32,000 nt of DNA from Pirellula staleyi DSM 6068 (GCA_000025185.1 CP001848.1:2280001-2312000); one strand, 5' to 3'; positions 2 through 20,475 are shown, counted from the first letter of the stretch. The notes: a model not told the origin generated them from the sequence alone. A program made the numbers and translations.

Positions 2-154
2 GCAGAAGATCCTGCTGCTGCAGCCGCCAGTGCCGATGCGGAACTCGACGCCTTGCTCGCAAGTTTGTCGGCTCCCGATCCAGCCCCACCCGCCGCAAGT
101 GGAGGCGACGACGCCATCGACCCCGAACTTGCCGCGCTACTGGCCGATCTGTAG
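2..154 (+). CDS. 3' end of a CDS that begins upstream of the window (acidic Ala/Pro/Asp-rich tail, product unknown)
   Basis: Frame 2 is open from the window edge to TAG at 152-154 and reads AEDPAAAAASADAELDALLASLSAPDPAPPAASGGDDAIDPELAALLADL*. It contains a repeated ELxALLAxL motif. It is absent from the ORF track only because it has no start inside the window. Confidence 0.35.
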   Translation, partial: AEDPAAAAASADAELDALLASLSAPDPAPPAASGGDDAIDPELAALLADL

Positions 155-1446: not shown

Positions 1447-1821
1447 TTAGCCCCCAATAAGGACCGTGGGGCAACCGGGAGGAAGAACCTTGCCAACCGG
1501 GCTCGGGATCGGCGCGACACACGTGGCATGTGCCGTCATGTCGTTCACTCGTGCGGCTGGAAGCCCGGCAATCAGCACCGTGCCAGAGCCCTTGGCTATC
1601 ATCCCCGGACCTGCGGGAACACAACCGGGGAGCATGCAGGGCATCGATATATCGGTGACCCGCGCAGCTGGCAAGTTCCCAATTAATACGGTCGGCGCTC
1701 CCGTGACAATCGCCAGCGGAAGGGCAGGGTGGGGGACCGGAACAATCGGATGGATCGGCGCATGACAGTGCGGAGCATCCTGCTTGATCAGGTCGGTCAT
1801 CCGTGCTGCTGCCATTCCCAT
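1447..1821 (-). CDS. PAAR-domain protein (T6SS spike-sharpening cone), minimal form with no extension domain
   Basis: 124 aa. The ATG is preceded by GGGAGGAA with a 5-nt spacer. Three PAAR-type motifs are present: AAARMTD, GAPTVLIGNLPAARVTD and GSGTVLIAGLPAARVND. The protein ends GCPTVLIGG. Confidence 0.9.
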   Translation of the reverse strand: MGMAAARMTDLIKQDAPHCHAPIHPIVPVPHPALPLAIVTGAPTVLIGNLPAARVTDISMPCMLPGCVPAGPGMIAKGSGTVLIAGLPAARVNDMTAHATCVAPIPSPVGKVLPPGCPTVLIGG

Positions 1822-1884
1822 CGATATTCCTCCCGCGACTCCGAAATTGGGCTCGCTAGCGTATTCGCCTGCGTCTCATGAATC

Positions 1885-2151
1885 TTGAAATTCAGCTTGC
1901 AAGATACTCCGAGTTTTACCCCCAGCATAGATCGCCCTTTGATTTCACGCTCCGGCCTCCTCCTCTCCCTGCTGGGACTTGTCGCAATCTGCACCCTGTT
2001 ATCCCAGCGGTATATTAGTCCGATCAGGCGTCGCAAGGGACTTGAAACAGCCGCGATAGTGCTAGCAGTGGCACTGCTACTGCTGGTAATCGCGATTGCC
2101 GCCAACGAGCCTTTTCCGCTATATCTGCCAATGAAACTCTTTCAAGCGTAA
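1885..2151 (+). CDS. Hypothetical small two-TM membrane protein (doubtful)
   Basis: 88-aa ORF from a TTG. It has two hydrophobic helices (GLLLSLLGLVAICTLL and AAIVLAVALLLLVIAIAA) separated by the basic loop RYISPIRRRKG. It ends 75 nt before the giant gene on the same strand. Codon third positions are less GC-biased than in neighbouring genes and there is no clear RBS, so it could be spurious. Confidence 0.25.
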   Translation: MKFSLQDTPSFTPSIDRPLISRSGLLLSLLGLVAICTLLSQRYISPIRRRKGLETAAIVLAVALLLLVIAIAANEPFPLYLPMKLFQA

Positions 2152-2226
2152 AGGGTGCCGGCGGATGCCAAGTTGGCGATCGCGACGGAGTGGCCCAGAC
2201 TGTCGGTGCGGAAATAGCGTGGGATC

Positions 2227-5200
2227 ATGGCCAAAAGCAAATCGTGGGGAGCCAAACCGAGGCAGGACGAAGAGCGTCCGCTGCGCTATCGTTGGACTCG
2301 CCGAATCGTCCTCACGATTGCGCTGGTGGGGATGTCGATTTGGCTCGGGCAGTTGCTGCTGCGACCCTTCTGGCACCCCCGGCTGCACCTGGTTTTAGTG
2401 ACGGGCGATGCCTTTAGTACGGGCGATCAGGTGCTAGCCGCGCCGCGCTCGGATTATGTAGTCGAGGACTTTGCGGGACTGCTATCGCTGGCACCGGTGG
2501 TCCATCAATCGTCGGCTTCCAGTGGTCCGCTGATTCTTGGAAACCTGCGCAGTCGCGACGACATGCAGCGACTCGACGACGAACTGTCGAAGCTCGTTAC
2601 CGGACATCGCGACGTGTTTGTGGTATACGTCTCCGCGCAGGGGATTTCTTCAGACGGCGAAGCGTTTCTCGCCTGCAGTGAAGCTGATGCGCAAAACCCA
2701 CTTGCTGGGCAGTATCGTGTGCGCAATTTGCTCGCGCAGCTGTCCGAGCTCCAATCGCACGCCATTTTGCTCATACTCGATGCGGGTCAAACCGACTACG
2801 ACCCTGCACGGGGAATGCTCGTCAATCAGTTTCCACGTCTCTTGCGCGATGAAGTGCAGCGTTCCGGTTCCAAGAACCTATGGGTTCTCTCGTCGCACGG
2901 ACCTGGCGAGCGTTCGCACATTTCGCATGCCTTGCGGCGCTCGATTTTCAGTTACTTTGTCGAACACGGTATGGCGGGTGCTGCCGATTCGAGTGGCGAC
3001 AGCGTCGTCGATTTAAACGAACTTTTTCGCTACGTCTCGATCAGCACGGCTGCGTTCGTTGAGCAAACCACGGCTGGAAATGCCGCTCAAGCACCGCAGC
3101 TGATGTGGGGAGGTGGCGAGATCGATGCAGCGGCTCTCTCACTCGAAATCACGGCGGTCCTTCCACCCAACAGCGAGCGCCCCGTCCTCACGCCACAGCT
3201 GGAACTGACGCAGTTGCGCGAGCCATCGGCCATCGAAACGAGTGCAAAGCGGCAGGCCGAGAACGAAGTCCGATCGTACGTTCAGCAGCAGATCTCGCGG
3301 TTCAGTCCGCGCGGCCAATTGGGCTACATCGTGACCGATCGGGCACGCTCGGTGCTGGTTCAAGGTGGCAAAATCCCCACGCTTCCCGGCGTGACCCCTA
3401 CCGGAACACCAGCAGCTACCGACCCAGCCAAACCGGGTGAGACCAAGCCGGGCGATAAGCCAGCCGAAGGGGATGCAAAGAAACCGGACGCTGCAGCAGG
3501 AGATAAGCCAGCCGGTGATCAGGCCGCAGGCGACAAAGCGGGGGACAAGCCAGCTGCTGAGCCTACTGGCACGGCAACAGCCGGTGCGGAGACAAAGGGG
3601 GGAGACACTGCTGCTGATGGTCCAGCTATCGATCTGCTCCTTGCCAAAGGTTGGCAAGTTCGCGATGCGCTGCTGGCCGAAAGCTTGGGTCGCGCTCGAG
3701 GTGTTGATAGCTTGCCCCACATTTGGCGCGTACTCGAGCGACGTCTGCTCGCTTACGAACTACGTCATCGACGTGGTGCTAATGCGGGCGAGAAAGTGCT
3801 GCGTCAGAATGTTACGGAACTGGTGGGAGTACTCGAGCAATTGCAGGCCCGCGTGGCTGGCGATCAATTCCCCGCGCGAAGTTTAGGTCGTCGGATTGCA
3901 CTTTCTTATCCTGGTCTATCGGCACCCATCACGCAGGTGCGGCAACTCGCCGTGCTCGAACGCATTGCCGCAGAAGGTGGCGAGGCGATGCCTGCTGTCG
4001 CCGCAGCTGCACTCACGCAGCTCGACTACTTCACATCGCGCGGCGGTGAAGCTGATTTCCTCGAATGGGCTAAGGCTATTCCGCCGGAAGCGATGCCTTA
4101 CGAAGAGGTCCGTTTCACATCGGAAATTGCCGCGATGCAAGGGTTTGATTGGACCATTGCCCAGCAACTCTTGCGCAATCGACTGGAAGCGGAACGGATC
4201 GCTGCGATGTCGTCGCGTTACGAGGATTGGATCGGAAAACTTGTCCAAGAGACCGACCTGAAACGACGTCATCTCGAACGTGAGGTCCTCGCGGGTCTGG
4301 CTCCCAATCGCAACGATCTGCTCGAACGACTTGCGGCGCTTCAGGCCGATCTTGTGCAGCTGCGGACCAACTTAAAACTGCTCGAAGATGCGCATCGCCT
4401 GGAAGTGGAGATGCTCCATCACTTGCCCGAATATCTCTCGTGGCAAGCGTCGCGCGATGGGGCCACGCTGAAGGAGCAGTCATCCTCGACCGAGATCAGC
4501 ACGCTGGTCGATAGCCTGATCGATCTCGTCGAGCTGCGGCAATTGCCCGATCCCACCAAGCTGCCGACCCTTGCGCGACTCTTGCCCATCGTCAAGCAAA
4601 ACCGCGATACGGTTCACAACTATTTTAGCGACGACCGGATCGAGCGGCTGGTCGCGATTCCGGCAACTCCCGGGGATGCTTGGGAGATCGAGCTTCTTCT
4701 TGAAACAACACTCCCTTCAGCCGGTGGACGACAGCTGCTGCTCGATGCGTGCGGAATTGTCGATGCGGAACTTGCCAGCGGTGTCACTCTGCCCGATGTG
4801 ACGCGCGTCAGTTTGCCCACCTCAGCAGGTCGACTTCCTGCTACGGAAGTGCATCGGCGTGGTGAGCTAGCCTGGAAAATGCTGCGCCTCTTGCATCCTG
4901 ATAACAAAGAAGAATTTCCTGAACTCTCATCGCTGGAAGCTGCTTGGAAGATGATTCCGCCCGTGGAGCGTACGCGGGAAGACATTAGTGAATTTGCCGT
5001 AGCGGTCGATCAGTTTTCCGAAGAGCTCGCGTCGTTCTACCGCAACCTGCCTGGCGTGATCGAACAGCGTGCTGCTGCGGGGCAAGATTTTCGGCAAGTC
5101 GCCGATCGTAAGGCGCGCATTCGTGAACTGGCGATGATTGAGCGAGGTTGCTACTTCGTCGACTCGCGCGATGCAGCGGTGATGGCCGATCCGAGCCCCT

Positions 5201-7608
5201 CACTGCTGCTGGGTCGCGTCGATGCCTACGATCTCTTTTCGTGGCAGCGGACTCGGCTCGAACTGGCGATGGTCGATGCGCCTCCAAGTGATCTACAAAC
5301 CTTGTCGGATAAAATGCTCCGCTATCAAGCGGCAGCAGAGGCGATCCCCTTACAGCCGCCACTCGATTCGCGCCTGACGTTGCCCTTAGAAGTGGTGGGA
5401 CCTACGAGCGTTCGGCTCGCGCTTGAAAACCAAAAAGAGGCATTCCTCAACGTCACCTGGAATGGTGAAGGTGAACAGCGGGCCTGGGTAACAGCCGAGT
5501 ATGCCGATGACTTGCTAAAAATCGAAACACCGGCGACGCAGCCGATCTATCCGAGCAACTATTCCGACACGGACTTGCTGCTGCAGCGTCCCACTTTCAA
5601 GTTGCGTCGCGGGGTGAGCGAAACGCTACGGATGGTAGTCCGGCGTCAAGAGGCTTCGGCTCGTCCTTCGCGCGTGATCTTGCGATTCCATGTCGCCGGA
5701 AAGCTGCTGCGTTACGACGTGGCTGTCGATCTGCCACTTCCTGAATCGGTCGATCTGCTGGTCGATGGTGTACCAGGAAGTTTTGCCAACGACTCGGCTG
5801 GCGCTCAGCTGTTTCCGTTCCCGAATCGTTCGACGAACTATCAGCTGTCGCTCGCTAGTAGCGCCACCATCGAGCGACAAATTGCGGTCGAGATGTATAG
5901 CCTGAAATCATCGATCAAAGATCCGTTGCCTCAAGTCGCATTGAGCGATGCCGATGCCAAGAAGCTTTTCTCAGAGCTGCCAGTTGGCCCCAAAATCGCC
6001 GATTTGCCAAACGTTGCACTTCCTCCAGCGGGTCAGAATTTGCCGATTCCGTTTCCTGCTCCCCCCCCACCTCCGAAGCCGCTGAAACCAGGAGAAGTTC
6101 CCGAACCACCGCCACCACCCGACCCCAAACTGGGGACCCTATACACACCGCAAGCGATGGTCGGTGGTGTGCTGGTACTGATCCGCGAGCCGGCTGCAGG
6201 TCGCACGATCATGAAGCGACTGGAAGTAACCGCGCAGCGTCCGCAGCGCTATGTGCGGCCGCGAGTGAACTATCAGCCGGGACGACAGCGGATCGAGATT
6301 ATTGTCGACGCTGAAGACCCACGTCTGTTACCAGCGGGTGGTTCGCGCGTGCATGTGGAGGTGCTCGATCCGATCCCCTCGGAAGCGGAGCGCCGCTTAG
6401 ATGGTCAGATTCTTGCTCCTAACTTCGAAACGCAGCTGTTTGTCGAAGTGGCCGACGAACCTGGGCGCTATGTCAACATTGCAATCACGGTCGACGATTA
6501 TCCGCGAGCCTTTCTCTACCGCGTTCCTTGTAGCGCTATTGCGCTCGATGTGCCGGAAGATACCGATGCAGTGAAGGTTTCGCTCGATCCACTTCCCAAG
6601 GGTACGCTCTATAAAGCGCCAGCAGGAGAAATTCCGGTCGTGGTGCGTGTCGATGCGCCTGGTTCTTCCGGTGGCAATCCGCCGCTAGAAGTGCGTGTCG
6701 GTGTGGATCGCGATCGCGATCGAACACTCAACGACGAAGCAGCGCTACTGCTAACGAGCACCCGCGATGTAAAGTTCACTGCCAGTGCCGCAGCTCCCCT
6801 TGGTGAGTTCACGATCGACACCATCGTCAGCGATTTCAGTATTAATGTTCCCGAGAGCGGACTGCAAAGTGGTCTGGCGAACATGCTCGCGCAAGTGTCG
6901 CTCGGAGACCGGATGGGTTACAGCAATCCGATCGAAATTGTGATCGATGGAGAAGCACCTCGGATTTCGGGCGTGGAACTTTTACCCTCTCAGCTCGCTG
7001 TGATCGGCAAACCGGTGGCGGTTTCCTGCATCGCGAGCGACGACGAACTCAGCGGCGTTGCTAAGCTCGAGGTGATGTTCGACACCAACCGGAGCGGCGC
7101 GATTGGCGACGACGACAAGCCGGTGATCGCCGTCTTTCAGCCGGAAGGACGCTGGACCGCCACGGTTCCGACCGAAGGGCTGATGCGCGGGACTTACAAC
7201 CTGCTGCTACGGGCCACCGATCGCGTGGGAAATCAAAGCCCCATTTCGCGAGTGAAGGTGCAAGTCGTTTCGCCCGAGGAAGCGGGGACTGGCGAGAAAA
7301 AACTGCTCGGAACGATTACCGGTACGGTGATTCATGGGGTCACGCCACAGCCGGGAATGAAGGTTTCGCTCTGGCCGGAAGGGGCGAATCCGTACGCCAA
7401 AGTTGATCCCAAAAATCCCGAGCCGAGCAAAAAGATCACCGAAGTGGCGACTGGACCCAAAGGGACGTACGAGATCACCCGCGTGCCACCCGGTAAATAT
7501 CTGCTGGTGGGGGAGGGACTCGTGAAGAACAAGAATCGCCGGGTCGCTATCCCAGTGACGGTGGAGCCTCCTAAGCCGCTCCCGCCGATTGAGCTGAAGC
7601 TCCCTTAA
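2227..7608 (+). CDS. Giant single-pass membrane protein: degenerate caspase-like domain, long helical region, Pro-rich spacer, Ig-like and carboxypeptidase-regulatory-like beta domains
   Basis: Uninterrupted 1,793-aa ORF. Basic N-terminus plus one TM helix (IVLTIALVGMSIWLGQLLL, ~nt 2302-2358). A Peptidase_C14-like pattern lies at ~nt 2380-3112: VFVVYVSAQG...ILLILDAGQ...LWVLSSHGPGERSH...FSYFVEHGMAGAAD...VDLNELFRYV. A GDKPA low-complexity linker and the Pro-rich stretch PAPPPPPKPLKPGEVPEPPPPPDP follow. The C-terminus has an Ig-like module (~6950-7270) and GTITGTVIHG...GTYEITRVPPGKYLLVGEG (~7310-7520). Confidence 0.85.
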   Translation: MAKSKSWGAKPRQDEERPLRYRWTRRIVLTIALVGMSIWLGQLLLRPFWHPRLHLVLVTGDAFSTGDQVLAAPRSDYVVEDFAGLLSLAPVVHQSSASSGPLILGNLRSRDDMQRLDDELSKLVTGHRDVFVVYVSAQGISSDGEAFLACSEADAQNPLAGQYRVRNLLAQLSELQSHAILLILDAGQTDYDPARGMLVNQFPRLLRDEVQRSGSKNLWVLSSHGPGERSHISHALRRSIFSYFVEHGMAGAADSSGDSVVDLNELFRYVSISTAAFVEQTTAGNAAQAPQLMWGGGEIDAAALSLEITAVLPPNSERPVLTPQLELTQLREPSAIETSAKRQAENEVRSYVQQQISRFSPRGQLGYIVTDRARSVLVQGGKIPTLPGVTPTGTPAATDPAKPGETKPGDKPAEGDAKKPDAAAGDKPAGDQAAGDKAGDKPAAEPTGTATAGAETKGGDTAADGPAIDLLLAKGWQVRDALLAESLGRARGVDSLPHIWRVLERRLLAYELRHRRGANAGEKVLRQNVTELVGVLEQLQARVAGDQFPARSLGRRIALSYPGLSAPITQVRQLAVLERIAAEGGEAMPAVAAAALTQLDYFTSRGGEADFLEWAKAIPPEAMPYEEVRFTSEIAAMQGFDWTIAQQLLRNRLEAERIAAMSSRYEDWIGKLVQETDLKRRHLEREVLAGLAPNRNDLLERLAALQADLVQLRTNLKLLEDAHRLEVEMLHHLPEYLSWQASRDGATLKEQSSSTEISTLVDSLIDLVELRQLPDPTKLPTLARLLPIVKQNRDTVHNYFSDDRIERLVAIPATPGDAWEIELLLETTLPSAGGRQLLLDACGIVDAELASGVTLPDVTRVSLPTSAGRLPATEVHRRGELAWKMLRLLHPDNKEEFPELSSLEAAWKMIPPVERTREDISEFAVAVDQFSEELASFYRNLPGVIEQRAAAGQDFRQVADRKARIRELAMIERGCYFVDSRDAAVMADPSPSLLLGRVDAYDLFSWQRTRLELAMVDAPPSDLQTLSDKMLRYQAAAEAIPLQPPLDSRLTLPLEVVGPTSVRLALENQKEAFLNVTWNGEGEQRAWVTAEYADDLLKIETPATQPIYPSNYSDTDLLLQRPTFKLRRGVSETLRMVVRRQEASARPSRVILRFHVAGKLLRYDVAVDLPLPESVDLLVDGVPGSFANDSAGAQLFPFPNRSTNYQLSLASSATIERQIAVEMYSLKSSIKDPLPQVALSDADAKKLFSELPVGPKIADLPNVALPPAGQNLPIPFPAPPPPPKPLKPGEVPEPPPPPDPKLGTLYTPQAMVGGVLVLIREPAAGRTIMKRLEVTAQRPQRYVRPRVNYQPGRQRIEIIVDAEDPRLLPAGGSRVHVEVLDPIPSEAERRLDGQILAPNFETQLFVEVADEPGRYVNIAITVDDYPRAFLYRVPCSAIALDVPEDTDAVKVSLDPLPKGTLYKAPAGEIPVVVRVDAPGSSGGNPPLEVRVGVDRDRDRTLNDEAALLLTSTRDVKFTASAAAPLGEFTIDTIVSDFSINVPESGLQSGLANMLAQVSLGDRMGYSNPIEIVIDGEAPRISGVELLPSQLAVIGKPVAVSCIASDDELSGVAKLEVMFDTNRSGAIGDDDKPVIAVFQPEGRWTATVPTEGLMRGTYNLLLRATDRVGNQSPISRVKVQVVSPEEAGTGEKKLLGTITGTVIHGVTPQPGMKVSLWPEGANPYAKVDPKNPEPSKKITEVATGPKGTYEITRVPPGKYLLVGEGLVKNKNRRVAIPVTVEPPKPLPPIELKLP
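3430..3560 (+). repeat. Imperfect in-frame tandem motif encoding GDKPA-type low-complexity linker
   Basis: Three near-copies: ggcgataagccagcc (3451-3465), ggagataagccagcc (3499-3513) and ggggacaagccagct (3541-3555). The peptide is KPGDKPAEGDAKKPDAAAGDKPAGDQAAGDKAGDKPAAE. Confidence 0.6.
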
Positions 7609-7626
7609 GGACCGAACTCTCGGTCC
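7609..7626 (+). terminator. Hairpin immediately after the stop of the 1,793-aa gene
   Basis: GGACCGA (7609-7615), loop ACTC, TCGGTCC (7620-7626). It starts directly after TAA at 7606-7608. Confidence 0.35.
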
Positions 7627-7640
7627 GAGACGGTTGACTG

Positions 7641-7678
7641 GAAGAGACCCCCGAAGGCCACGGTCTCTTCAATTTCTT
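7641..7678 (+). terminator. Candidate rho-independent terminator
   Basis: A 9-bp perfect stem, GAAGAGACC (7641-7649) with GGTCTCTTC (7662-7670), and a 12-nt loop. It is followed by AATTTCTT. It lies in the 395-nt gap before the lipoprotein gene. Confidence 0.45.
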
Positions 7679-8003
7679 CGAGTGCTGTCTCAAGCGAGCA
7701 GCTTGTGGGGTGGAGTTTGCTAGCACTTTCTTGGTGCTAGCAGGTCGTTCATGGGCAGGAATTGCCGGTTGTTCATCGATCGGAGAGGGCAAATCCTCAA
7801 GGTCGCACTCGTTCGCGACGATAGTTTAGGTTGAGTCTGCGGGTACTAACGGCTGTGACGATTCTGCGGGTGGTTGTCGCGAGGCAATCGGCTCACGATC
7901 GACGGCAGTTTTTTTCAGCAGACACGAAGTTAATCTCGTTTGTCTGCGAGGCCATCGAGCCGGCTACTTCGATAACCTAACCTTCCTGCGAGAAACCACG
8001 GCC

Positions 8004-9482
8004 ATGAAGCTTTCTTCGTGCCAGGCGATTGCCCTTGCGATGATGATATTCGTCGCACTCGGCTGCCGAAGCGCGCAGACAGCTCCCGCCGCACCGCCGG
8101 GGGCCACCGATTTGCCCACCAGCGCCACGGCCAACGGTCAAACGATCGTGGCCATTGCGCCACCGGCTCAGGCATGCTGTCCCCAACCAACACTTCCCGA
8201 AAAGCTCGGCATCACCGGCCTGTTTAAAGGGATTGGCGGACTGATCGACCGGATTCGTAACCGTCTTGGTTCGCGATTCCCAGGACTCGAAGCCAAGCCT
8301 CCCGTCCTTGCCATCACCGATCCTGCCAACGCCGAGTCGTCGAACCCTGCGGTGGCTGCTGCCGCTGGTGCTAAAGCGGAAGAAGATGCTGCCGCACAAA
8401 AGGTGAAAGCGATTCGCTACCTCGGTTCGCTGGGGTGTGGAGGTTGCTATCCCGATGTGGAGCCGGCACTGCTGGCCGCTCTGGACGACTGCACAGAAGC
8501 GGTGCGCTACGAGGCTGTTCTCGCGCTCCGCAAGAGTGGCGGCGATCCTTGCAAGAACTGCCAGAAGGATGCCTGCTGCAGCGACAAGGTGCGCGAGAAG
8601 CTCGACAAAATTGCCAACGGCATGGACGATCAGGGTTGCTACTTCGAAGCCTCGGATCGGGTGCGCCGCAACGCTCGCCTTGCACTTTGCTACTGTGGCG
8701 GCCCTACCTCTCCCCAGATGCAGCAGACTTTGCCTCAGGAAGGCCCCAGTGAAGAGATTCCCCCCGCCACTGCACCAGCAGCAGGCGCGGTCTCGATTCC
8801 CAAGAGCCAAGTGGAAATGGTTGCCGAACGCATCGAACGAAGCGTAATCGCCAGCAAGCAAGCCAACACGACAACTGGCGGTGTCAATCGACAAGTGGCT
8901 TACGATCAAGCGACCGGCAGCGTGACGGAAGTTCGCTGGGAGCAACTCTCGGCTCGCATCGACCAGTTTGCTTCGCGGGCCGATGCTGCTGGCATGATGA
9001 ACCTGGTCCGAACGCATGTGCTCACCGCCGGTGGGCCGCTTCCTCCGGAACTCACTTCGCGAGCCCTCGAAGTGGCACGGTTCGATTGGACCAACGCCGA
9101 GCGTCTCGTCTCACGACCACTCGCTTCCGCTTTGGCAACCACGCAAGTCGGTGGACTCAGCCTGGTGTGGGAAGAGAATGGCCGACTTTGGATGGTGCGG
9201 GTTCTCGAACGACGGAAAGTCAACCTGGTGCAGCCAGCTTCGTACTCGCAGCCTGTGGCTCCTTCGCGTGACCAAGCGGCTGGTGTGTCGGCTCAGCCTC
9301 GTGCATCGGCTCCCGTGGGGACGTCCGCTCCCGCACCTCGCGGCACCATTCAAGCAGCACCGGCATCTGCACCAGCGCCAGCCAATGGCGGCGGAGTTTC
9401 CGCAGCCGATAATGCGGCTCCTGCTCGTGCACCGGTCGTATTCACCACGCGCGTTGTTCCTTGTAACTGCAACCAGCATTAG
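8004..9482 (+). CDS. Cys-rich lipoprotein with HEAT-like repeat and a possible degenerate parvulin-like C-terminal region
   Basis: 492 aa. The signal peptide ends in a lipobox-like FVALGC|RS. HEAT-like pattern: AIRYLGSLG...EPALLAALDDCTEAVRYEAVLALRKSG. Paired cysteines occur throughout (ACC, CGGC, CKNC, ACC, CYC, PCNC). The C-terminal stretch FDWTNAERLVSRPLASALATTQVGGLSLVWEENGRLWMVRVLERR loosely resembles a PpiC-type PPIase core; this is a weak assignment. Confidence 0.8.
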   Translation: MKLSSCQAIALAMMIFVALGCRSAQTAPAAPPGATDLPTSATANGQTIVAIAPPAQACCPQPTLPEKLGITGLFKGIGGLIDRIRNRLGSRFPGLEAKPPVLAITDPANAESSNPAVAAAAGAKAEEDAAAQKVKAIRYLGSLGCGGCYPDVEPALLAALDDCTEAVRYEAVLALRKSGGDPCKNCQKDACCSDKVREKLDKIANGMDDQGCYFEASDRVRRNARLALCYCGGPTSPQMQQTLPQEGPSEEIPPATAPAAGAVSIPKSQVEMVAERIERSVIASKQANTTTGGVNRQVAYDQATGSVTEVRWEQLSARIDQFASRADAAGMMNLVRTHVLTAGGPLPPELTSRALEVARFDWTNAERLVSRPLASALATTQVGGLSLVWEENGRLWMVRVLERRKVNLVQPASYSQPVAPSRDQAAGVSAQPRASAPVGTSAPAPRGTIQAAPASAPAPANGGGVSAADNAAPARAPVVFTTRVVPCNCNQH

Positions 9483-9655
9483 TGCGAACCAACAATCCAC
9501 CTACTTCTCCAAGCCATTTTTTACACTCACTGCTACGTTCGAAAAGTCACGTCCTCGGGCAATCGTGTCGCGCTTGGTCGTCGCTGACTCTCGCGTACTT
9601 TGCTACGATGCAGTAGCGAAGCACTCACACGAGCTGATTCGAAGGAAATCCTGCG

Positions 9656-14878: not shown

Positions 14879-15383
14879 GTCGCCTTAGGTCGCCCCAAAA
14901 CCTAGCTGCGACCTCCATTTTCCATAATTCTTGGTTCTCGGTTCCAAGATTTCATGGTGGGGGGCGAAATAGTGGTGCTTTGGTCGGAAAGATCGGGGCC
15001 GCCCCAAACGAACTGGGCCGCAATTGCCCGATTTTTCTGTCGCTAAAGCGAGCCTGACGAGTGCTGTAACGGATGTAGCGGTTTTCGTTTTTCGGCACCA
15101 CTCTCCCAGGTGCTGGTAGGCGAAAACGATAATCGGCGATGAAACGGAAATGCTGGTTTGTGCTACGCTTATGCTTTCCAATAGAGTTGGGGTGGGGCGG
15201 CTGGTTGGCGGATGATCGCGGGGCTTCAGCCGCTGCTGATTGCCGAGAACTGGTAGCCAAGATTCGAAATGGCCGATTGCTTGCCGGTCGCGTCGCTTGT
15301 CGGCTGTCACAGCCTCGGGCGATAGACGCCGCGAATCAGCCGCACGCGAAACTTTCAAGCAGATGGATTAGGGAGAAAATGTC

Positions 15384-15587
15384 GTGGCCGGAAAACTCAC
15401 CAAAATCTCGATTTTGCTCCAAACCCTCAGCCGACTTCCTGGGCTGAGTTTCCTCAGTTCCGTCGACACGCAGATGCGCGAAGTGGAAGACAACGTGGGT
15501 GACTACGAGGACAACGTCAACGAAATCAAACGTAATGCCGAGGACGTCAAAGGGGTTGCGACCGATTTGGTCTCCGACGACGAATAA
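15384..15587 (+). CDS. Hypothetical small acidic coiled-coil protein (doubtful)
   Basis: 67-aa ORF from a GTG, with AGGGAG 12 nt upstream. N-terminal half is hydrophobic/amphipathic (KISILLQTLSRLPGLSFLSS). C-terminal half is acidic and heptad-like (MREVEDNVGDYEDNVNEIKRNAEDVKGVATDLVSDDE). It is the only plausible ORF in the 1.08-kb gap upstream of vgrG. Confidence 0.35.
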   Translation: MAGKLTKISILLQTLSRLPGLSFLSSVDTQMREVEDNVGDYEDNVNEIKRNAEDVKGVATDLVSDDE

Positions 15588-15962
15588 TCGCCTGCTGCGA
15601 GCGAATCACCAGAGCTGTTCGTCAGCCGGACTCACGATGTTCAGGCGGTGGAGCTTCGGGCGCCATTTTTTTCCGCTGCGTAGGAGTCGATCGCTGTGGG
15701 TGGACATTCGATCGACGCTGGTGGCTCATCCCTTGTCAACTCGAGAAGTGCCTGCGACCTGTTGTTCCTGTTCGAAAGAGTCTCCTGCGCCGAGTGCTTC
15801 ACGATCCTTCCGCGACCGAGCAACTCCGGTCGTCGTGGTGGATGAAAAACGGCCCCACGCTACTGGTTGCGTAGTGCCGGAATGTTATTCTCTGAGAGAC
15901 TCGCGTCGCGCTAATCGCCACCGATCCACTTCCATCCAGCGAGCTATCACGCGAAAGAAGCT

Positions 15963-18020
15963 ATGGCACGTGCACTCACGTTTACGTCTCCGCTAGGTCC
16001 CGACAAGTTCGTCCTTCAGTCGATGGAAGCTTACGAGGAACTGGGACGCTTGTTTGAATACAAGCTGCGGCTCCTCAGCAAAGATGGCGCGATCAAGCTC
16101 GACGATTTGATCGGCAAGAACGTGACGATCAGCGTCGAGCTAGTCGATGGCCGAACACGCTATTTCAATGGCGAAGTAGCGGAATTCGAGCAGATCACCG
16201 AATCGTTCCAAGACTACTTCGTCTACGTGGCGATTGTACGTCCAGAGCTGTGGTACCTTTCGCTCACCGCCGACTGCAAGATCTTTCAGCAGAAGACAGC
16301 GGTCGACATCATCAAGGCGGTGCTCGGCGATGGAGCGGTGACGTATCGGACATCGCTCAGCAAGACCTATCGGACCCTCGAATACTGCGTCCAGTACAAC
16401 GAGTCGGACTTCAACTTCGTCAGTCGCCTGATGGAGCAGGAAGGTATCTACTACTTCTTCGAGCATGCCCAAGGCACCCATAAGATGGTGCTGGCCGATT
16501 CCATTTCGGCGCACAAGGCGATCGAAGGGGAAGCCAGCATCGCTTACATGTCGCGTCGCGATGGCTTCGACGACGACACCGATCATGTGTTCGACTGGAA
16601 AGTGCGACACAAAGTCCGCACCGGTGTTTGGGCGCACACCGATTTCGACTTCGTCAAACCCAAGTCGAACCTCGAGGCCAAATCACAAATCGTTCGATTG
16701 CACCCCCAGTCGTCCAACGAAGTCTTCACCTATCCCGGTTCCTACACCGTCGTAGCTGATGGTACGGGCTATGCCCGTAACCGCATTGAAGAAGAGCACA
16801 CCGTTCACGATGTGGTCGTTGGTCGCACCAATGCACTCCAGATGGCTGTCGGTGGACTCTTCACCCTCACCGACTATCCACGGGCCGATCAGAACGTCGA
16901 GCATTTGATCACCATGATCAACATGGTCTTCAAGCAAGAGATCGAGACCGCTGGTGGAGCGGTGCAAGGGACCGTCGACACCAAGCTCGGCGTTTTCATC
17001 GAGCATCAATTTGGAGCGCTCGAGAAATCGAAGCCCTTTCGTGCTGCCTGGACCACTCCCCGGCCGATCGTACGTGGCCCGCAAACTGCGATTGTCGTGG
17101 GTAAAGCAGGGGAAGAAATCTGGACCGATCTGTATGCCCGTGTGAAAGTGCAATTTCACTGGGATCGCTACGGTCAGAAAAATGAAAACAGCAGTTGCTG
17201 GCTCCGTGTGGGGCAAGTTTGGGCGGGGCCTGAGTGGGGCGCGATTCACATTCCCCGCATCGGTCAGGAAGTGATTGTCGACTTCCTGGAAGGTGACCCC
17301 GATTGTCCGATCGTGACGGGGCGTGTGTACAACGGCGACAACATGCCTCCGTATGCGCTCCCCGCGAATCAAACGCAAAGTGGTATCAAGAGTCGCTCGA
17401 GCAAGAGCGGCACCGCGCAGAATTTCAATGAACTCCGGTTTGAGGACAAAAAAGATTCCGAGCATATCTATTTCCATGCGGAAAAAGATTTCACTCGCAT
17501 CGTCGAGAACAACGACGTCCTAAAGGTCGGCTTCGACAAAAAGCAAGCCGGCGATCAAACGATCGACATCTATAACAATCGCACCACCACGATCGAGCAA
17601 GGTAACGAGAAACTGCAGGTCAAGGTCGGTAATCGCGAGACTCTCGTCGATACCGGTAACGACACGCATGTGGTCAAGACCGGCAATCGTGAGACGACGG
17701 TGACCACTGGTAACGACACGCACACCATCAGCACCGGCAATCGAGAAGTCACGGTTTCGAAAGGCAACGATACCCTGACGGTAACCACGGGAAATATGAC
17801 AGTGACGGTGACAGCCGGCACATGCAAAATCACAGCGGGGACCGCAATCGAACTGATCTGCGGTGGCAGCTCGATCAAGATGACCCCCTCGTCGATTGCG
17901 ATCGAATCTCCCACCATCAACATCAAGGCGAGTGGCACTTTGAATGCCGAATCCCCCGCAACAACCGTCAAGGGGACCGGCATGCTCACCTTGCAAGGTG
18001 GCGTCGTGAAGATCAACTAG
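15963..18020 (+). CDS. vgrG: Type VI secretion system spike protein VgrG (canonical, no C-terminal effector extension)
   Basis: 685 aa. Typical VgrG opening: ALTFTSPLGPDKFVLQSMEAYEELGRLFEYKLRLLS. gp5 OB-fold core: RVGQVWAGPEWGAIHIPRIGQEVIVDFLEGDPDCPIVTGRVYNGDNMPPYALP. Also NELRFEDKKDSEHIYFHAEKD. A C-terminal beta-helix of TGNDTH/TGNRET repeats ends LTLQGGVVKIN. Confidence 0.95.
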   Translation: MARALTFTSPLGPDKFVLQSMEAYEELGRLFEYKLRLLSKDGAIKLDDLIGKNVTISVELVDGRTRYFNGEVAEFEQITESFQDYFVYVAIVRPELWYLSLTADCKIFQQKTAVDIIKAVLGDGAVTYRTSLSKTYRTLEYCVQYNESDFNFVSRLMEQEGIYYFFEHAQGTHKMVLADSISAHKAIEGEASIAYMSRRDGFDDDTDHVFDWKVRHKVRTGVWAHTDFDFVKPKSNLEAKSQIVRLHPQSSNEVFTYPGSYTVVADGTGYARNRIEEEHTVHDVVVGRTNALQMAVGGLFTLTDYPRADQNVEHLITMINMVFKQEIETAGGAVQGTVDTKLGVFIEHQFGALEKSKPFRAAWTTPRPIVRGPQTAIVVGKAGEEIWTDLYARVKVQFHWDRYGQKNENSSCWLRVGQVWAGPEWGAIHIPRIGQEVIVDFLEGDPDCPIVTGRVYNGDNMPPYALPANQTQSGIKSRSSKSGTAQNFNELRFEDKKDSEHIYFHAEKDFTRIVENNDVLKVGFDKKQAGDQTIDIYNNRTTTIEQGNEKLQVKVGNRETLVDTGNDTHVVKTGNRETTVTTGNDTHTISTGNREVTVSKGNDTLTVTTGNMTVTVTAGTCKITAGTAIELICGGSSIKMTPSSIAIESPTINIKASGTLNAESPATTVKGTGMLTLQGGVVKIN
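17601..17815 (+). repeat. In-frame octapeptide-periodic repeats forming the VgrG beta-helical needle
   Basis: Recurrent ggtaacgac acgca / ggcaatcg(t/a)gag units encode GNEKLQVKVGNRETLVDTGNDTHVVKTGNRETTVTTGNDTHTISTGNREVTVSKGNDTLTVTTGNMTVTVT. Confidence 0.7.
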
Positions 18021-18095
18021 CCAGCTAAGCGGTTCTGTTCTAGGTGGGTGTCTCGCAAGTGAAGTTCCTGCATCGACTTCTGGGCGACGTGAACT

Positions 18096-19049
18096 ATGCG
18101 GATAACGCTTCAAGTGACGGCTGGTCCTGAAAAGGGGCGCAAGGTTTATCTGCAGCAAGGGCAGACCGCGCGCTTCGGACGGACAGAATGGGCCGACTTC
18201 AGCTTCCCGAAAGATAAGCAGCTTGCCGACGAGCATTTTCTGCTCGACTACGGCCGCACCAACCTGAAGCTCAAAGCGCTCGGCGCTGATCGCATTGTGA
18301 AGGTCAACGGCGCTCCTGTCGCCGAGATACAGCTGAACCATGGCGACAATATCGAAGCAGGCGAGACCACGCTGCAAGTGTTGTTCGCGGGACAGCCGAT
18401 GCCGATCTCGCCTGCTGCAGCAGCCGCAGCCGCCGCAGCGCTGGCCGCTTCCGCCGAGGAAGCCGAAAAAAACAAAGTCCGGCTTCCGATCCATCTGTGT
18501 GAGGAGCTGGAGTTCGGGGACGACGAAGCCGATCTGGCCAACACCTGCACCACCGATCCCGAGTGGATCGACAAACTGGCGGCCAACCAAAAGTTTTCTT
18601 CCGCGCTCCGCGTGCAAGCTTTTTTGCTACCCCAACGCGAGGCGGTCTGGTGGGCCGCACAAATGGTCGACCAAACCATGGGGGCCAAGCTCAAGCCAGC
18701 TGATGCCGCCGCTTATGCCGCTGGTCTTGCCTGGGCGCTCGATCCCAATGAAGACTACCGTCGCGATGCAGAACGTGCCGCCGCGAAGACCAAATGTGAT
18801 GGACCCGGCAGCTGGGTGGCGCTGGCAGCTTTTTGGAGTGGCGACTCCATCGCGCCGGTCGAGATCGACCCCGTGAAGCCCGACCACCGCTTGACCTCGC
18901 AGGCCGTTGCGACAGCGATGGTCATTTCGGCCTATCAAGAGAAATCGGCACCTCCGGCGACTCGTTTCGCCCGCTATTTGGCGGTGGGACGCGATATTCA
19001 GGAGGGCAAACTCAAAATGCCGACAGAAGCTGCCAAGCCGACCAAGTAA
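18096..19049 (+). CDS. FHA-domain protein with poly-Ala linker and unassigned alpha-helical C-terminal domain
   Basis: 317 aa. It starts 75 nt after the vgrG stop. FHA pattern in residues ~1-97: ARFGRTEWADFSFPKDKQLADEHFLL...LKALGADRIVKVNGAPV...LNHGDNIEAGETTLQVLF. Linker: PAAAAAAAAALAASAEEAEK. The ~190-aa C-domain contains REAVWWAAQMV...AAGLAWALDPNEDYRRDAERAA...WVALAAFWSG, which I cannot assign to a family. Confidence 0.9.
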   Translation: MRITLQVTAGPEKGRKVYLQQGQTARFGRTEWADFSFPKDKQLADEHFLLDYGRTNLKLKALGADRIVKVNGAPVAEIQLNHGDNIEAGETTLQVLFAGQPMPISPAAAAAAAAALAASAEEAEKNKVRLPIHLCEELEFGDDEADLANTCTTDPEWIDKLAANQKFSSALRVQAFLLPQREAVWWAAQMVDQTMGAKLKPADAAAYAAGLAWALDPNEDYRRDAERAAAKTKCDGPGSWVALAAFWSGDSIAPVEIDPVKPDHRLTSQAVATAMVISAYQEKSAPPATRFARYLAVGRDIQEGKLKMPTEAAKPTK

Positions 19050-19234
19050 GGCCCCTCTCGATTGTTTTCGCGAGTTCGTGCTGCCTGCTATCCGGTGGAC
19101 TTTCGTCAATCCCATGCCCCATCCGGGTAGATTCCCAGTGGGGTCTTAGCGTATTTTAAGAGCTACCGTGCAGTGCTGGCCTCTAGCGCTTCCGAGCTTT
19201 TTTGGTAACAAGAGTCCGCAGGAATCGTTCTCTT

Positions 19235-20296
19235 ATGTCCATGCCCGCTTCGCTCCAATCCCGCTATCGGATGATTCGCGAGATTGGCCAAGGTTCGTTC
19301 GGAGTGGTCTATCTGGTCGAGGATTTGCAAACCTCCGAGCAGCGGGCACTAAAAGTTCTCCTTCCTTGGGCTGCTGCTGACGAAAAGCTTCGGCATCGCT
19401 TACGCCGCGAAGCTCGGCTAGCTTCTAGCCTTACTGGCAAACATGTCGTTCGCACCTATGAAGTGGGCGAGACCCCCGATCCGAACGTCTACTTGGTGAT
19501 GGAGTACCTCGAAGGGCGCGATCTCACCGAGGTGCTAGACGCCGAAAATAAGCTCACTCCTACGCGGGTCGAGTCGATTGCGCGGCAAATGCTGGTAGCG
19601 CTCAGTGACGCCCATCGCATGGGGATTGTGCACCGCGATCTCAAGCCGCAGAACGTTTTTCTCTGTCCCACGCCCGATGGGGGCGAAGTGGTCAAAGTCT
19701 TCGATTTTGGGATCGCCAAGGTGACCGGTGCGGGGGCACTCACGGAAACTGCCAAGCTGACGATCTCCGGCGGTGTGATGGGAACACCTGCCTACATGAG
19801 TCCCGAGCAATGCCGGGGAGAAATGCTGACCCCCAGCAGCGATCTCTATTCGCTAGGGATCTTGCTCTACGAACTCCTGACCGGCAACGTGCCGTTTGAT
19901 CACGATAATCCGGTGCAAATTTTGCTGATGCACCATAGTAAACCCGCCCCGCCACTCCCGCCGGAGATTGCCTGGACCCACTTGGGAAAGGCCATCATGC
20001 ACGCTCTGGAAAAGAACGCCGACGACCGTTTTGCATCGGCCGACGAATTCCTGGCGGTCCTTAACGGCCAGCCTGTCCCCCCGCGAGCCCCTCAGAAAGC
20101 TCCTCCTGAGGCAAAGAAAACGCCGCAGGCAGCTCCCAAAGGAAATCCGGAGCCCGTACTCACGAAGTCGGCCACTGAGGTCGATCCGTACGCGAATATG
20201 GTACCTCCCAGCTCAGCTTGGAAGATTTGGGTACTTCTCCTCGTCGTCCTGGTGCTTGGGAGCGCCGGAGCTGCTGCGGTCTACTTCCTGAAATAA
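19235..20296 (+). CDS. Hanks-type Ser/Thr protein kinase, C-terminally membrane-anchored, no sensor ectodomain
   Basis: G-loop IGQGSFGVVYLV, VAIK-type Lys in RALKVL, catalytic loop HRDLKPQNVF, DFGIAK, GTPAYMSPE. A Pro/Lys-rich linker precedes the terminal TM helix WKIWVLLLVVLVLGSAGAAAVYFLK*. The ORF track starts at TTG 19202; the ATG at 19235 (MSMPASLQSRYRMIREIG) is the more likely start. Confidence 0.9.
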   Translation: MSMPASLQSRYRMIREIGQGSFGVVYLVEDLQTSEQRALKVLLPWAAADEKLRHRLRREARLASSLTGKHVVRTYEVGETPDPNVYLVMEYLEGRDLTEVLDAENKLTPTRVESIARQMLVALSDAHRMGIVHRDLKPQNVFLCPTPDGGEVVKVFDFGIAKVTGAGALTETAKLTISGGVMGTPAYMSPEQCRGEMLTPSSDLYSLGILLYELLTGNVPFDHDNPVQILLMHHSKPAPPLPPEIAWTHLGKAIMHALEKNADDRFASADEFLAVLNGQPVPPRAPQKAPPEAKKTPQAAPKGNPEPVLTKSATEVDPYANMVPPSSAWKIWVLLLVVLVLGSAGAAAVYFLK

Positions 20297-20475
20297 GAGA
20301 GAAGCTCGAGCCCAGCTGGCCACATTGAGCTAAATTGTCTCATCAGTTGGGAACCTGGGATTGGGTTGCTCGCAAGCGGGCAACTGCTATCATCCAGCCA
20401 GTATTAGGAGGCAAATGCCGCCGCTGCACGACGCAGCTGCGCAAAGGGTTGCCTCCCGCTCAAAGGAGCACGCAC

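Follow-up and report, generated by a model that had tools for sequence, protein, structure and literature searches.

In the canonical T6SS, the periplasmic domain of TssM together with TssJ forms the part of the machine that spans the periplasm and contacts the outer membrane. In the T6SS(iii) of Bacteroidota, the proteins TssN, TssO, TssP, TssQ and TssR are found in place of the TssJLM membrane complex. To our knowledge, what is understood structurally about envelope crossing by a T6SS derives entirely from the proteobacterial TssJLM complex and, more recently, from its Bacteroidota replacement. The H1-T6SS of Pseudomonas aeruginosa has a threonine phosphorylation pathway made up of PpkA, PppA, Fha1 and TagQRST, with the VWA domain of PpkA located in the periplasm.

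The window considered here, a 32 kb stretch of Pirellula staleyi DNA, contains T6SS spike genes together with the genes for two giant membrane proteins and a lipoprotein (Table 1). Profile searches and translations recovered, at the same positions, all of the genes listed in a preliminary description of this DNA. The arrangement is syntenic in a relative whose giant A is 73% identical. No account of the combination of giants with a T6SS was found in the literature searched, in agreement with the earlier impression that it was undescribed.

The spike genes and their neighbours

Table 1. Genes of the P. staleyi window, with positions counted from its first nucleotide
Feature	Position	Strand	Basis or remark
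Fused TssB-TssC-like sheath gene, 3' end (last 50 codons, Pro/Ala-rich tail)	2..154	+	Rest lies left of the window
Class I SAM-dependent methyltransferase	286..1389	-	Pfam Methyltransf_31/25/11
Minimal PAAR spike-tip protein, divergent from giant A	1447..1821	-	PF05488 E=1.2e-16; NF033420
Giant A, 1793 aa	2227..7608	+	TM helix, caspase fold, C-terminal Ig/CarboxypepD_reg matches
Cys-rich lipoprotein, HEAT-like repeats	8004..9482	+	Signal peptide, 16 Cys, weak HEAT matches
Giant B, 1740 aa	9656..14878	+	TM helix, pseudo-caspase module, VWA domain
Small acidic ORF, 67 aa, between giant B and vgrG	15384..15587	+	Called as a gene in close relatives
VgrG spike, 685 aa	15963..18020	+	TIGR03361, Phage_GPD; exact match to ADB16486.1
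FHA-type domain + DUF6931, soluble	18096..19049	+	PF22011 E=7e-37, PF16697 E=2e-8
Hanks-type Ser/Thr kinase, tail-anchored	19202..20296	+	Pkinase E=1.5e-48, C-terminal TM helix
Ion_trans-family cation channel, closes the co-directional run	20335..21408	+	Pfam

VgrG, which is identical to a protein deposited for P. staleyi DSM 6068, is as canonical as first proposed, scoring 622 bits against TIGR03361 (cut-off 186) and matching Phage_GPD (E=1e-99), Phage_base_V and Gp5_trimer_C. The PAAR protein on the opposite strand scores 61 bits against PF05488 (cut-off 27) and falls under the cut-off of its NCBIfam equivalog; the three motifs previously attributed to it can be read by eye as AAARMTD, PAARVTD and PAARVND. 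The usual passengers of vgrG islands, already thought to be missing, gave no matches among the scanned window ORFs (DUF4123, DUF1795, DUF2169 and Rhs).

Directly after VgrG come the FHA protein and the Hanks kinase, as the preliminary description had it. The former has an FHA-type domain at residues 1–95, which also matches FHA structures in the PDB weakly and qualifies the protein as an FHA partner, followed by DUF6931 at 158–301. The kinase is anchored in the membrane by a TM helix (342–360) and ends 4 residues beyond it, leaving no periplasmic domain; a VWA domain sits on giant B instead. The kinase probably starts at an ATG at ~19235, in keeping with the 353-aa gene called in relatives, and it also matches generic defence-kinase models. 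No PP2C phosphatase of the PppA type was matched among the scanned window ORFs. In other loci, too, giants repeatedly have methyltransferase genes beside them, and it is uncertain whether the one found here belongs to the system. Membership of the Ion_trans channel is doubtful, since its linkage is seen in close relatives only.

The first codons of the window encode the C-terminal 50 residues of a fused VipA+VipB protein 592 aa in length, matching the C-terminus of L004:6150-7928. Pfam places VipA at residues 28–131 and VipB at 201–489 of this protein but finds no VipB_2 C-terminal domain, in whose place there is a Pro/Ala-rich tail; the full VipA/VipB/VipB_2 set is therefore incomplete, the scores lie under the NCBIfam equivalog cut-offs, and the alignment to TssC covers only residues 46–365 of 492. 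With the TssC C-terminal domain missing, it is uncertain that the fused protein builds a working sheath. The claim that the 32 kb hold no T6SS core genes thus stands for complete genes but has to yield at positions 2–154. No co-localised TssA-M/Hcp/ClpV quorum is present, as the window and the 7.8 kb to its left hold only the fused gene, and between the gene run and the right edge of the window (~10.6 kb) there is no core gene. A full T6SS cluster just outside the window had been named as a finding that would reduce the locus to an ordinary cluster edge. A sheath-type gene does lie at that edge, but the 7.8 kb beyond it hold no full conventional cluster, and hence the locus is not such an edge.

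Two giants with an inactive caspase fold

A single hydrophobic helix, preceded by a basic tail, lies near the N-terminus of each giant (residues 27–45 in giant A and 58–76 in giant B), which agrees with their initial assignment as single-pass membrane proteins of ~1,750 aa. The pattern of hydrophobic helices suggests that the tails are cytoplasmic and that the remainder of each protein is periplasmic. In giant A the basic tail and TM helix are followed by a predicted periplasmic pseudo-caspase module (~50–310), a low-complexity linker, an all-helical domain of ~575 aa, Ig-like beta-sandwiches and a CarboxypepD_reg-like C-terminal domain. Giant B begins with a Ser/Thr-rich tail (1–55) and continues through the TM helix, the pseudo-caspase module, a helical region and a VWA domain to a beta-rich C-terminus. 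The VWA domain (~1180–1390) retains an intact DxSxT metal-site motif. Its VWA_2/VWA matches fall short of the Pfam cut-off in giant B, and in the orthologue from locus L006 they reach the cut-off or narrowly miss it. The two giants had been called paralogous, which is detectable over the first ~300 residues only (27% identity, E=2e-12); beyond this point the architectures differ. The P. staleyi protein Psta_1807 falls into the same 90% cluster as giant A.

An AlphaFold2 model of giant A residues 1–340 (pLDDT 72.6) was matched by Foldseek to the MALT1 paracaspase (E=9e-11) and also to metacaspase 9, procaspase-7, caspase-9 and legumain, so that residues ~50–310 of the predicted model have the caspase-hemoglobinase fold. 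Support from the sequence is weak, consisting of a sub-threshold NCBIfam caspase match and a profile match to a PF00656-carrying protein. The catalytic His-Cys dyad of peptidase C14 was not found, the Cys position being Gly in 9/9 aligned family members. At the dyad sites giant A reads ...VSAQG... and ...LDAGQ..., with Gln for the His, and giant B reads ...SMPGC... and ...LDVSR..., where the His has no counterpart. The term pseudo-caspase used in the preliminary description is therefore apt.

Neither giant proved homologous to the TssM periplasmic domains (IcmF-related, IcmF_C), and the helical domain of giant A resembles neither the TssM periplasmic domain nor any solved structure, by Foldseek or by sequence. 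Any role of the giants as a conduit is thus proposed by analogy, not homology. Searches with the N-terminal module collected 170 50%-identity clusters at E<=1e-30, with most proteins 1,400–1,900 aa long, and the giant architecture is conserved across hundreds of such clusters. The lipoprotein encoded between the giants has a signal peptide ending ...VALGC, which together with its 16 Cys confirms its earlier description. Of the 56 independent giant loci, 18 have a member of its family, frequently in the order giantA>lipoprotein>giantB, and where it is kept it usually sits between the two giants. The P. staleyi locus hence has a complete module, made up of a giant of this size class with an N-terminal TM helix and a Cys-less caspase-fold module, the lipoprotein and a second giant.

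Linkage to T6SS genes across Planctomycetota

A scan of a genome collection with the giant-A alignment as query yielded 56 loci, every one of them in Planctomycetota, of which 40 are flanked by at least 8 kb of DNA. Of these 40, 26 (65%) have one or more T6SS core genes and 15 have three or more, the nearest usually being <500 bp from the giant. Giant A is typically divergent from tssK-tssL-tssM and is also found beside tssBC-hcp or vgrG. In one recurrent layout tssC<tssB<tssA<sigma<tssM(short)<tssL<tssK< faces away from giantA>lipoprotein>giantB>, and in a second tssF<tssE<..hcp<tssC<tssB< faces away from giantA>. Independent Pfam calls, precomputed for loci L006 and L007, support these layouts; L006 reads tssK>tssL>tssM(short)>giantA>giantB, co-directional with gaps of ~30 bp. 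The cultured Aporhodopirellula aestuarii has tssF>tssG>clpV>..vgrG>FHA-DUF6931>giantA>lipoprotein>giantB. In the remaining 14 well-flanked loci a T6SS gene is absent from the surrounding 10 kb, and Anatilimnocola aggregata has a distant homologue that lies among housekeeping genes. Starting from the short TssM, a giant is adjacent in only one of the three clusters examined. The association of the giant module with the T6SS is well supported. As giant A, the lipoprotein and giant B are usually kept beside T6SS genes in relatives, they look like T6SS envelope parts.

The idea that unrelated planctomycetal giant genes happen to lie beside an orphan vgrG/PAAR pair might appeal to the many giant proteins and many kinases that planctomycetes encode, and to the third or so of giant loci without a nearby T6SS gene. 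It is effectively refuted by the scan, in which a family restricted to Planctomycetota shows recurrent layouts and, in many families of the phylum, core genes that are usually directly adjacent. Synteny is, moreover, kept at 73% protein identity, and VgrG>FHA-DUF6931>giantA recurs in independent rearranged forms. Linkage of giants to T6SS genes recurs across the phylum.

TssM of the planctomycetal clusters is only 540–557 aa long, with TM1 and TM2 at ~40–96, TM3 at ~515–537 and fewer than 10 residues thereafter; ending directly after the third TM helix, it has no periplasmic domain. This short family has at least 717 members, of which the best 120 are 465–561 aa long and carry the IcmF-related_N domain only; a P. 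staleyi member is not among these best 120. No match to the TssJ family is present in the precomputed Pfam lists of five loci (L006, L007 and L065–L067).

Loci L023 and L026 have the order VgrG>FHA_DUF6931>giantA, and further members of the family lie in L045, L046 and L050; the FHA-DUF6931 protein recurs beside vgrG and giants outside P. staleyi. One preprint also reports a Pseudovibrio T6SS locus with a DUF6931 gene downstream of vgrG, and the domain is therefore not neutral to the T6SS question. Adjacency of the kinase is confined to close relatives; kinases occur in only 4 independent giant loci, where they are different and much larger proteins.

Detection tools disagree on P. staleyi, for which T346Hunter predicts one T6SS and the stricter, canonical quorum of TXSScan gives 0 T6SSi (PMC4793230 Tables S3, S7), a disagreement that fits an atypical or dispersed system. 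The two tools disagree in the same way on R. baltica (TXSScan 0, T346Hunter 1). A planctomycetal variant would explain why standard T6SS detectors disagree on planctomycetal genomes.

A candidate envelope module and its relation to known systems

The favoured reading, with a probability of roughly 0.55, is that the window holds a piece of a dispersed, non-canonical P. staleyi T6SS, with giant A, the lipoprotein and giant B as its Planctomycetota-specific envelope module and the FHA protein and kinase as a phospho-switch. VgrG and PAAR would form the spike and the fused TssB-TssC-like protein a sheath-type component. Each giant would be an inner-membrane protein with a cytoplasmic N-terminus, and the inactive caspase-fold modules may serve to pair the two. 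Jointly with the lipoprotein, the giants would span the periplasm and contact the outer membrane, standing in for TssJ and the periplasmic domain of TssM. A PpkA/Fha-like switch may be formed by the tail-anchored kinase and the FHA-DUF6931 protein: the kinase would phosphorylate cytoplasmic Thr residues, such as those in the Ser/Thr-rich tail of giant B, and the FHA domain would bind the phosphorylated residues, thereby linking the loading of the spike or the docking of the baseplate to the envelope module. A broader proposal, put forward tentatively at somewhat less than even odds, is that Planctomycetota possess a distinct T6SS variant whose trans-envelope complex consists of TssL, a TssM cut after TM3, two dead-caspase giants and a Cys-rich HEAT lipoprotein, to which the P. 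staleyi sub-lineage adds a single-chain TssB-TssC sheath protein lacking the usual C-terminal domain.

The preliminary description had offered two readings. Its island of a T6SS with giant envelope proteins is supported in outline by the 26 of 40 loci, and the firing checkpoint attached to it is a hypothetical addition. According to such a checkpoint model, the giants and lipoprotein would be periplasmic sensors (similar to TagQRST or the VWA of PpkA) that license assembly via the kinase and FHA protein while remaining outside the conduit. The intact DxSxT of giant B, in a domain type that PpkA exposes in the periplasm, would suit a sensor, as would a kinase that has no periplasmic domain of its own and is encoded with the FHA protein directly downstream of vgrG; inactive caspase folds, moreover, often serve as binding or scaffold modules. 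Against this, few loci have a kinase and those kinases are dissimilar, the window has no PP2C phosphatase, many giants adjoin the structural genes tssK/L/M, and a sensor would leave the replacement of the TssM periplasmic domain unexplained. A purely regulatory role is hence unlikely, if worth keeping in mind, and because the giants lie beside T6SS structural genes far more widely than the kinase does, a structural role is at least as likely as a regulatory one.

The second reading, re-use of the spike outside a T6SS, is not supported, and in relatives (L045) the same giants and fused sheath gene share a cluster with tssK/L/M. The negative TXSScan result, a sole nearby sheath-type gene that lacks the TssC C-terminal domain and the core-gene-free flanks of the gene run would agree with a different envelope machine, or its remnants, built of the spike, the fused protein and the giants with the other core genes lacking; the T346Hunter prediction and the fully canonical VgrG and PAAR speak against it, and it is judged improbable. 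About as unlikely is the suggestion that the giants accompany T6SS loci as cargo or surface proteins (very large T6SS-associated effectors, adhesins or proteins for self-protection) and not as machine parts. The Ig-like and CarboxypepD_reg domains at the C-terminus do resemble surface adhesins and some family members stand alone, but the giants start with a membrane anchor, predicted N-in, and not with a delivery module of the PAAR, MIX or Rhs kind, their conservation across clusters is unlike that of variable effectors, domain searches found no toxin domain or immunity gene, and their position is fixed beside tssK/L/M and not in the variable vgrG-proximal slots.

If the broader proposal is true, planctomycetes have a new, non-homologous solution to envelope crossing, of a rank comparable to the Bacteroidota TssN-R and perhaps an adaptation to the unusual periplasm of planctomycetes. 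A function would be given to a large family of 'hypothetical' giants, and an inactive caspase fold would be in use as a periplasmic scaffold. A whole phylum appears to keep the cytoplasmic and membrane part of TssM and to lose the periplasmic, channel-forming part, and in the same loci lie the genes for a lipoprotein and for two conserved periplasmic giants of 1,750 aa. What forms the conduit, and how the machine adapts to a different cell envelope, thereby become testable questions.

The individual parts have counterparts elsewhere. The caspase, paracaspase and metacaspase family (peptidase C14) shares the fold of giant A ~50–310, but the giants lack the dyad and their module is predicted to be periplasmic and membrane-tethered. 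As in orphan or auxiliary vgrG-PAAR islands, VgrG and PAAR of P. staleyi are encoded at a distance from most T6SS core genes; unlike these islands, the locus has conserved, machine-like envelope genes and a sheath-type gene, and no adaptor, effector or immunity genes. With the H1-T6SS pathway it shares a membrane-anchored Hanks kinase and an FHA protein encoded with T6SS genes, and a VWA domain predicted to be periplasmic. It differs in that the VWA is on giant B and not on the kinase, which is tail-anchored with no periplasmic part, the FHA protein carries DUF6931, and the window has no PP2C or TagQRST homologues.

In relation to the canonical T6SS(i), exemplified by the TssJ-TssL-TssM complex of enteroaggregative E. 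coli Sci-1, the related planctomycetal clusters have TssL and TssK, and their TssM keeps the N-terminal two-thirds, with three TM helices and the cytoplasmic IcmF-related_N domain. The proposed module, too, would link inner to outer membrane and includes a lipoprotein. Unlike in T6SS(i), the whole TssM periplasmic domain is gone, no TssJ was seen in five loci, and the giants are single-pass proteins that begin with an inactive caspase fold and show no likeness to TssM by sequence or Foldseek. The T6SS(iii) provides a precedent for the phylum-specific swap of an envelope complex by unrelated in-cluster proteins. No homology to that system was detected, and the planctomycetal swap would differ in being partial, with TssL, TssK and a short TssM retained.

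Gene content of the window and its left edge

The genes of the window were defined from a six-frame ORF listing together with Pfam and NCBIfam scans, and every gene named in the preliminary description was recovered where it had been placed. The spike genes, encoding VgrG and PAAR, are typical of their families. VgrG and the FHA protein are identical to ADB16486.1 and ADB16487.1, respectively, of Pirellula staleyi DSM 6068, and Psta_1807 belongs to the 90% cluster of giant A. An acidic 67-aa ORF ahead of vgrG has no family match; the gene calls of every close relative (L001-L005) include it. The co-directional run closes with a gene for a voltage-gated-type cation channel (Ion_trans, PKD_channel), which starts 38 bp past the kinase and whose linkage was observed in close relatives only. 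To the right of 21.5 kb lie routine metabolic genes, for an OYE reductase, a DUF72 protein, a HAD hydrolase and two sulfatases; sulfatase genes are a usual feature of Pirellulaceae genomes, and these two have no bearing on the T6SS finding. A promoter scan of the window returned 0 promoter-like sites, and terminator-like sites were no commoner than in shuffles. With PADLOC, the giants, the lipoprotein and the FHA protein gave no defence-system matches; the kinase matched the PD-T4-6 and MADS kinase models, which is taken as generic Hanks-kinase similarity.

Features of the window, of its left flank in a very close strain (L004) and of loci in relatives (L-numbers)
Feature	Position	Strand	Remarks
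Fused TssB-TssC, last 50 residues	window 2-154	+	
Methyltransferase	window 286-1389	-	plain class I
PAAR	window 1447-1821	-	
Giant A	window 2227-7608	+	1793 aa
Lipoprotein	window 8004-9482		16 Cys
Giant B	window 9656-14878		1740 aa
Small ORF	window 15384-15587	+	67 aa, strongly acidic; between giant B and vgrG
VgrG	window 15963-18020		fully canonical; TIGR03361, 622 bits
FHA-type domain fused to DUF6931	window 18096-19049		
Hanks kinase	window 19202-20296		
Ion_trans channel	window 20335-21408	+	
Sulfatase	window 26438-28027	-	
Sulfatase	window 28758-31172	+	
Membrane-fusion-type protein	L004:1-379		CusB/HlyD-like
OEP protein	L004:512-4369	-	lipoprotein-type
TPR-fused methyltransferase	L004:4644-6002		
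Fused TssB-TssC	L004:6150-7928		592 aa
Fused TssB-TssC homologue	L018:2621-4195		
Fused TssB-TssC homologue	L026:3506-5251	-	
Fused TssB-TssC homologue	L045:1561-3213	-	
OEP gene	L006:1734-2816		upstream of tssK
Tandem tssC	L066:14781-17876		
Tandem tssC	L067:10115-13213		

The 7.8 kb to the left of the window were taken from L004, which is about 98.7% identical to it in DNA; compared over window 7600-9700, the two show, besides the approximately 1.3% nucleotide differences, a 1-nt intergenic indel at window position ~7706, which moves the offset between the two from 7774 to 7775. The product of the gene that crosses the window edge matches both VipA (TssB) and VipB (TssC). The earlier statement that 32 kb hold no T6SS core gene is therefore an edge effect, as the first nucleotides of the window encode the end of this fused sheath-type protein. 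Its alignment to TssC is confined to residues 46-365 of 492, the VipB_2 C-terminal domain being replaced by a Pro/Ala-rich tail, which in P. staleyi carries an acidic terminal helix, and the homologues in three relatives stop at the same point. Because the C-terminal domain is missing, the gene fails the definition of TssC. These natural single-chain fusions measure 524-592 aa, consistently without the VipB_2 (gp25-like) domain, and never occur together with split tssB and tssC in the examined loci; in L045 the fusion lies inside a tssK/L/M cluster that has no split tssA-tssB-tssC.

A conventional T6SS cluster just outside the window, which had been envisaged as an alternative, is not present in the 7.8 kb to the left. 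The fused gene is flanked there by genes for a TPR-methyltransferase, a 1285-aa TolC-like (OEP) protein and a membrane-fusion-type protein, in an order shared with a relative that shows 73% identity in giant A. The OEP and membrane-fusion genes could supply the system with an outer-membrane partner, or else belong to an efflux pump that has nothing to do with it. Genome surveys disagree on P. staleyi DSM 6068 and Rhodopirellula baltica: TXSScan, whose criterion is a quorum of canonical components lying together, finds no T6SSi in either, and T346Hunter reports one T6SS in each (PMC4793230, Tables S3 and S7), R. baltica T6SS genes having been on record since 2009 (PMC2660368; PMC5394234). Such disagreement would be the pattern expected of an atypical or dispersed system, and the suggestion that a T6SS, complete or not, is encoded elsewhere in P. 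staleyi is thereby supported.

Genomic coupling of the giants to planctomycetal T6SS genes

A link to T6SS was already suggested by distant giant A homologues (25-32% identity). In L006, tssK, tssL, a short tssM, giant A and giant B follow each other in the same orientation, some 30 bp apart, and in L007 giant A diverges from an oppositely oriented run of tssB, tssC, three hcp genes and tagJ, with tssE and tssF further along. A family alignment was then scanned against one genome per species (GTDB), returning 56 loci, all from Planctomycetota (Pirellulales, Planctomycetales and one Phycisphaera), with a best match of 42% identity and P. staleyi itself not among them. After ORF calling, clustering, Pfam annotation of recurrent families and mapping, giant A was found to be accompanied most often by the Cys-rich lipoprotein (18 loci), TssK (15), TssL, short TssM and giant B (13 each, the last from a single-sequence query and probably an undercount), TssB and TssC (10 each), a sigma-70-type factor (9), TssA (8), and VgrG, FHA-DUF6931 and fused TssB-TssC (5 each). 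Forty loci have 8 kb or more of flanking DNA; 26 of them contain at least one T6SS core gene and 15 at least three, the giant typically lying less than 500 bp from the nearest. The cultured Aporhodopirellula aestuarii carries tssF, tssG and clpV and, further along, vgrG, FHA-DUF6931, giant A, lipoprotein and giant B, all in the same direction.

The remaining 14 of the 40 well-flanked loci have no T6SS gene nearby, and in Anatilimnocola aggregata a distant giant homologue stands alone among housekeeping genes. When short TssM is taken as the starting point, a giant adjoins one of three clusters, and that giant is frameshifted. The conserved triad of giant A, lipoprotein and giant B is genomically coupled to planctomycetal T6SS genes, and we regard the T6SS association of the giants as solid, with a probability of about 85%.

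Several further features recur in these loci. Methyltransferase genes lie directly beside the giants in the window, in L004 and in L014, L016, L019, L022, L025, L038 and L044; in seven loci the product is a PKMT-type protein-lysine methyltransferase (PF10119 and PF21782). They are often found in loci without a nearby T6SS gene, and the giants or other envelope proteins may be methylated. Planctomycetal T6SS clusters (L040, L045, L048, L050, L052, L056, L059, L064, L066 and L067) encode a sigma-70-type factor of their own, with regions 2 and 4, between short tssM and tssA, in many of them with a conserved soluble protein of about 133 aa, which suggests cluster-specific transcriptional control; neither gene is in the window. 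In L066 and L067, and also in L031, L050, L052 and L056, tssB is followed by a tandem pair of tssC paralogues of ~498 and ~528 aa, each with VipB and VipB_2.

A short TssM and the anatomy of the giants

Canonical TssM has some 700 periplasmic residues, which form a channel together with the lipoprotein TssJ. The TssM of these clusters, about 545 aa in every case, has no periplasmic part: two N-terminal helices and a cytoplasmic IcmF-related_N region are followed by a third helix at ~515-537, where the protein ends. A profile search with it retrieved at least 717 proteins; the best 120 of the 717 measure 465-561 aa with PF14331 as their sole domain, some bear the NCBI name 'IcmF/TssM N-terminal domain-containing protein' (Planctomycetota), and no P. 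staleyi protein was identifiable among these 120. Precomputed Pfam lists of five loci contain no TssJ-family or IcmF_C-family gene, and the 133-aa protein beside the cluster sigma factor was rejected as a TssJ substitute, having neither signal peptide nor lipobox. With the periplasmic part of TssM missing and no TssJ in those lists, these systems lack the known conduit.

Each giant begins with a basic tail and a single hydrophobic helix (residues 27-45 in giant A, 58-76 in giant B), so that both are predicted to be anchored in the inner membrane with, by the positive-inside rule, the bulk of the chain in the periplasm. They had been described as paralogues, which holds for the first ~300 residues (27% identity, E=2e-12), with no alignment beyond. 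Residues 1-340 of giant A, modelled with AlphaFold2 (pLDDT 72.6), match in structure MALT1 paracaspase (E=9e-11), metacaspase 9, procaspase-7/9 and legumain, and the caspase fold is also backed by a sub-threshold NCBIfam caspase match and a profile match to a PF00656 protein. The catalytic Cys position is Gly in nine of nine aligned family members; the catalytic His is kept in the family consensus and is Gln in the window giant A, and giant B has neither residue. The label pseudo-caspase was thus well chosen. In an exhaustive search of representative sequences, this N-terminal module proved to characterise a large family, with 170 clusters reaching E<=1e-30 and 496 reaching E<=1e-10; most of the listed matches are proteins of 1,400-1,900 aa.

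Residues 466-1180 of giant A (model pLDDT 82.8) comprise an all-helical domain of about 575 residues, for which solved structures, TssM among them, give no meaningful match, and then a beta-sandwich; the C-terminus is Ig-like and CarboxypepD_reg-like. Giant B has a VWA domain in which a DxSxT metal-site motif is present, and its cytoplasmic tail is rich in Ser and Thr. The giants fail the definitions both of TssM and of an active caspase. The kinase has a TM helix at 342-360 with only four residues beyond, and is therefore tail-anchored without a periplasmic domain. For the lipoprotein, an N-terminally extended Logan gene call (517 aa) was rejected, since the MKLSSC... start gives a signal peptide and lipobox.

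Possible mechanism and comparison with known systems

The triad may form the periplasm-spanning, outer-membrane-contacting portion of the membrane complex, with the lipoprotein in a TssJ-like role. The caspase fold dimerises in caspases and paracaspases, and the inactive folds may bring the two giants together as a pair at the membrane. The kinase would phosphorylate cytoplasmic Thr residues, the tail of giant B being one candidate, and binding of the FHA domain to these would couple recruitment of the spike or baseplate to the envelope module. Structural replacement by the triad is plausible but unproven, and we would put it slightly short of even odds. Its main rival is that the giants are purely regulatory, against which counts the sparse conservation of the kinase relative to that of the giants.

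The gene combination had been thought undescribed, in agreement with the open-access literature and bioRxiv, where topic searches found neither the giants nor the lipoprotein nor the truncated TssM described as components of a T6SS; for DUF6931 one preprint was found there. Since too few components lie together locally to reach the quorum, the locus falls outside the canonical T6SSi cluster type. The tail-anchored kinase and FHA-DUF6931 protein resemble the PpkA/Fha1 switch and meet part of its definition only, the VWA domain here being carried by giant B instead. In function, the closest analogies are TssJLM and the phylum-specific complex that replaces it in Bacteroidota.
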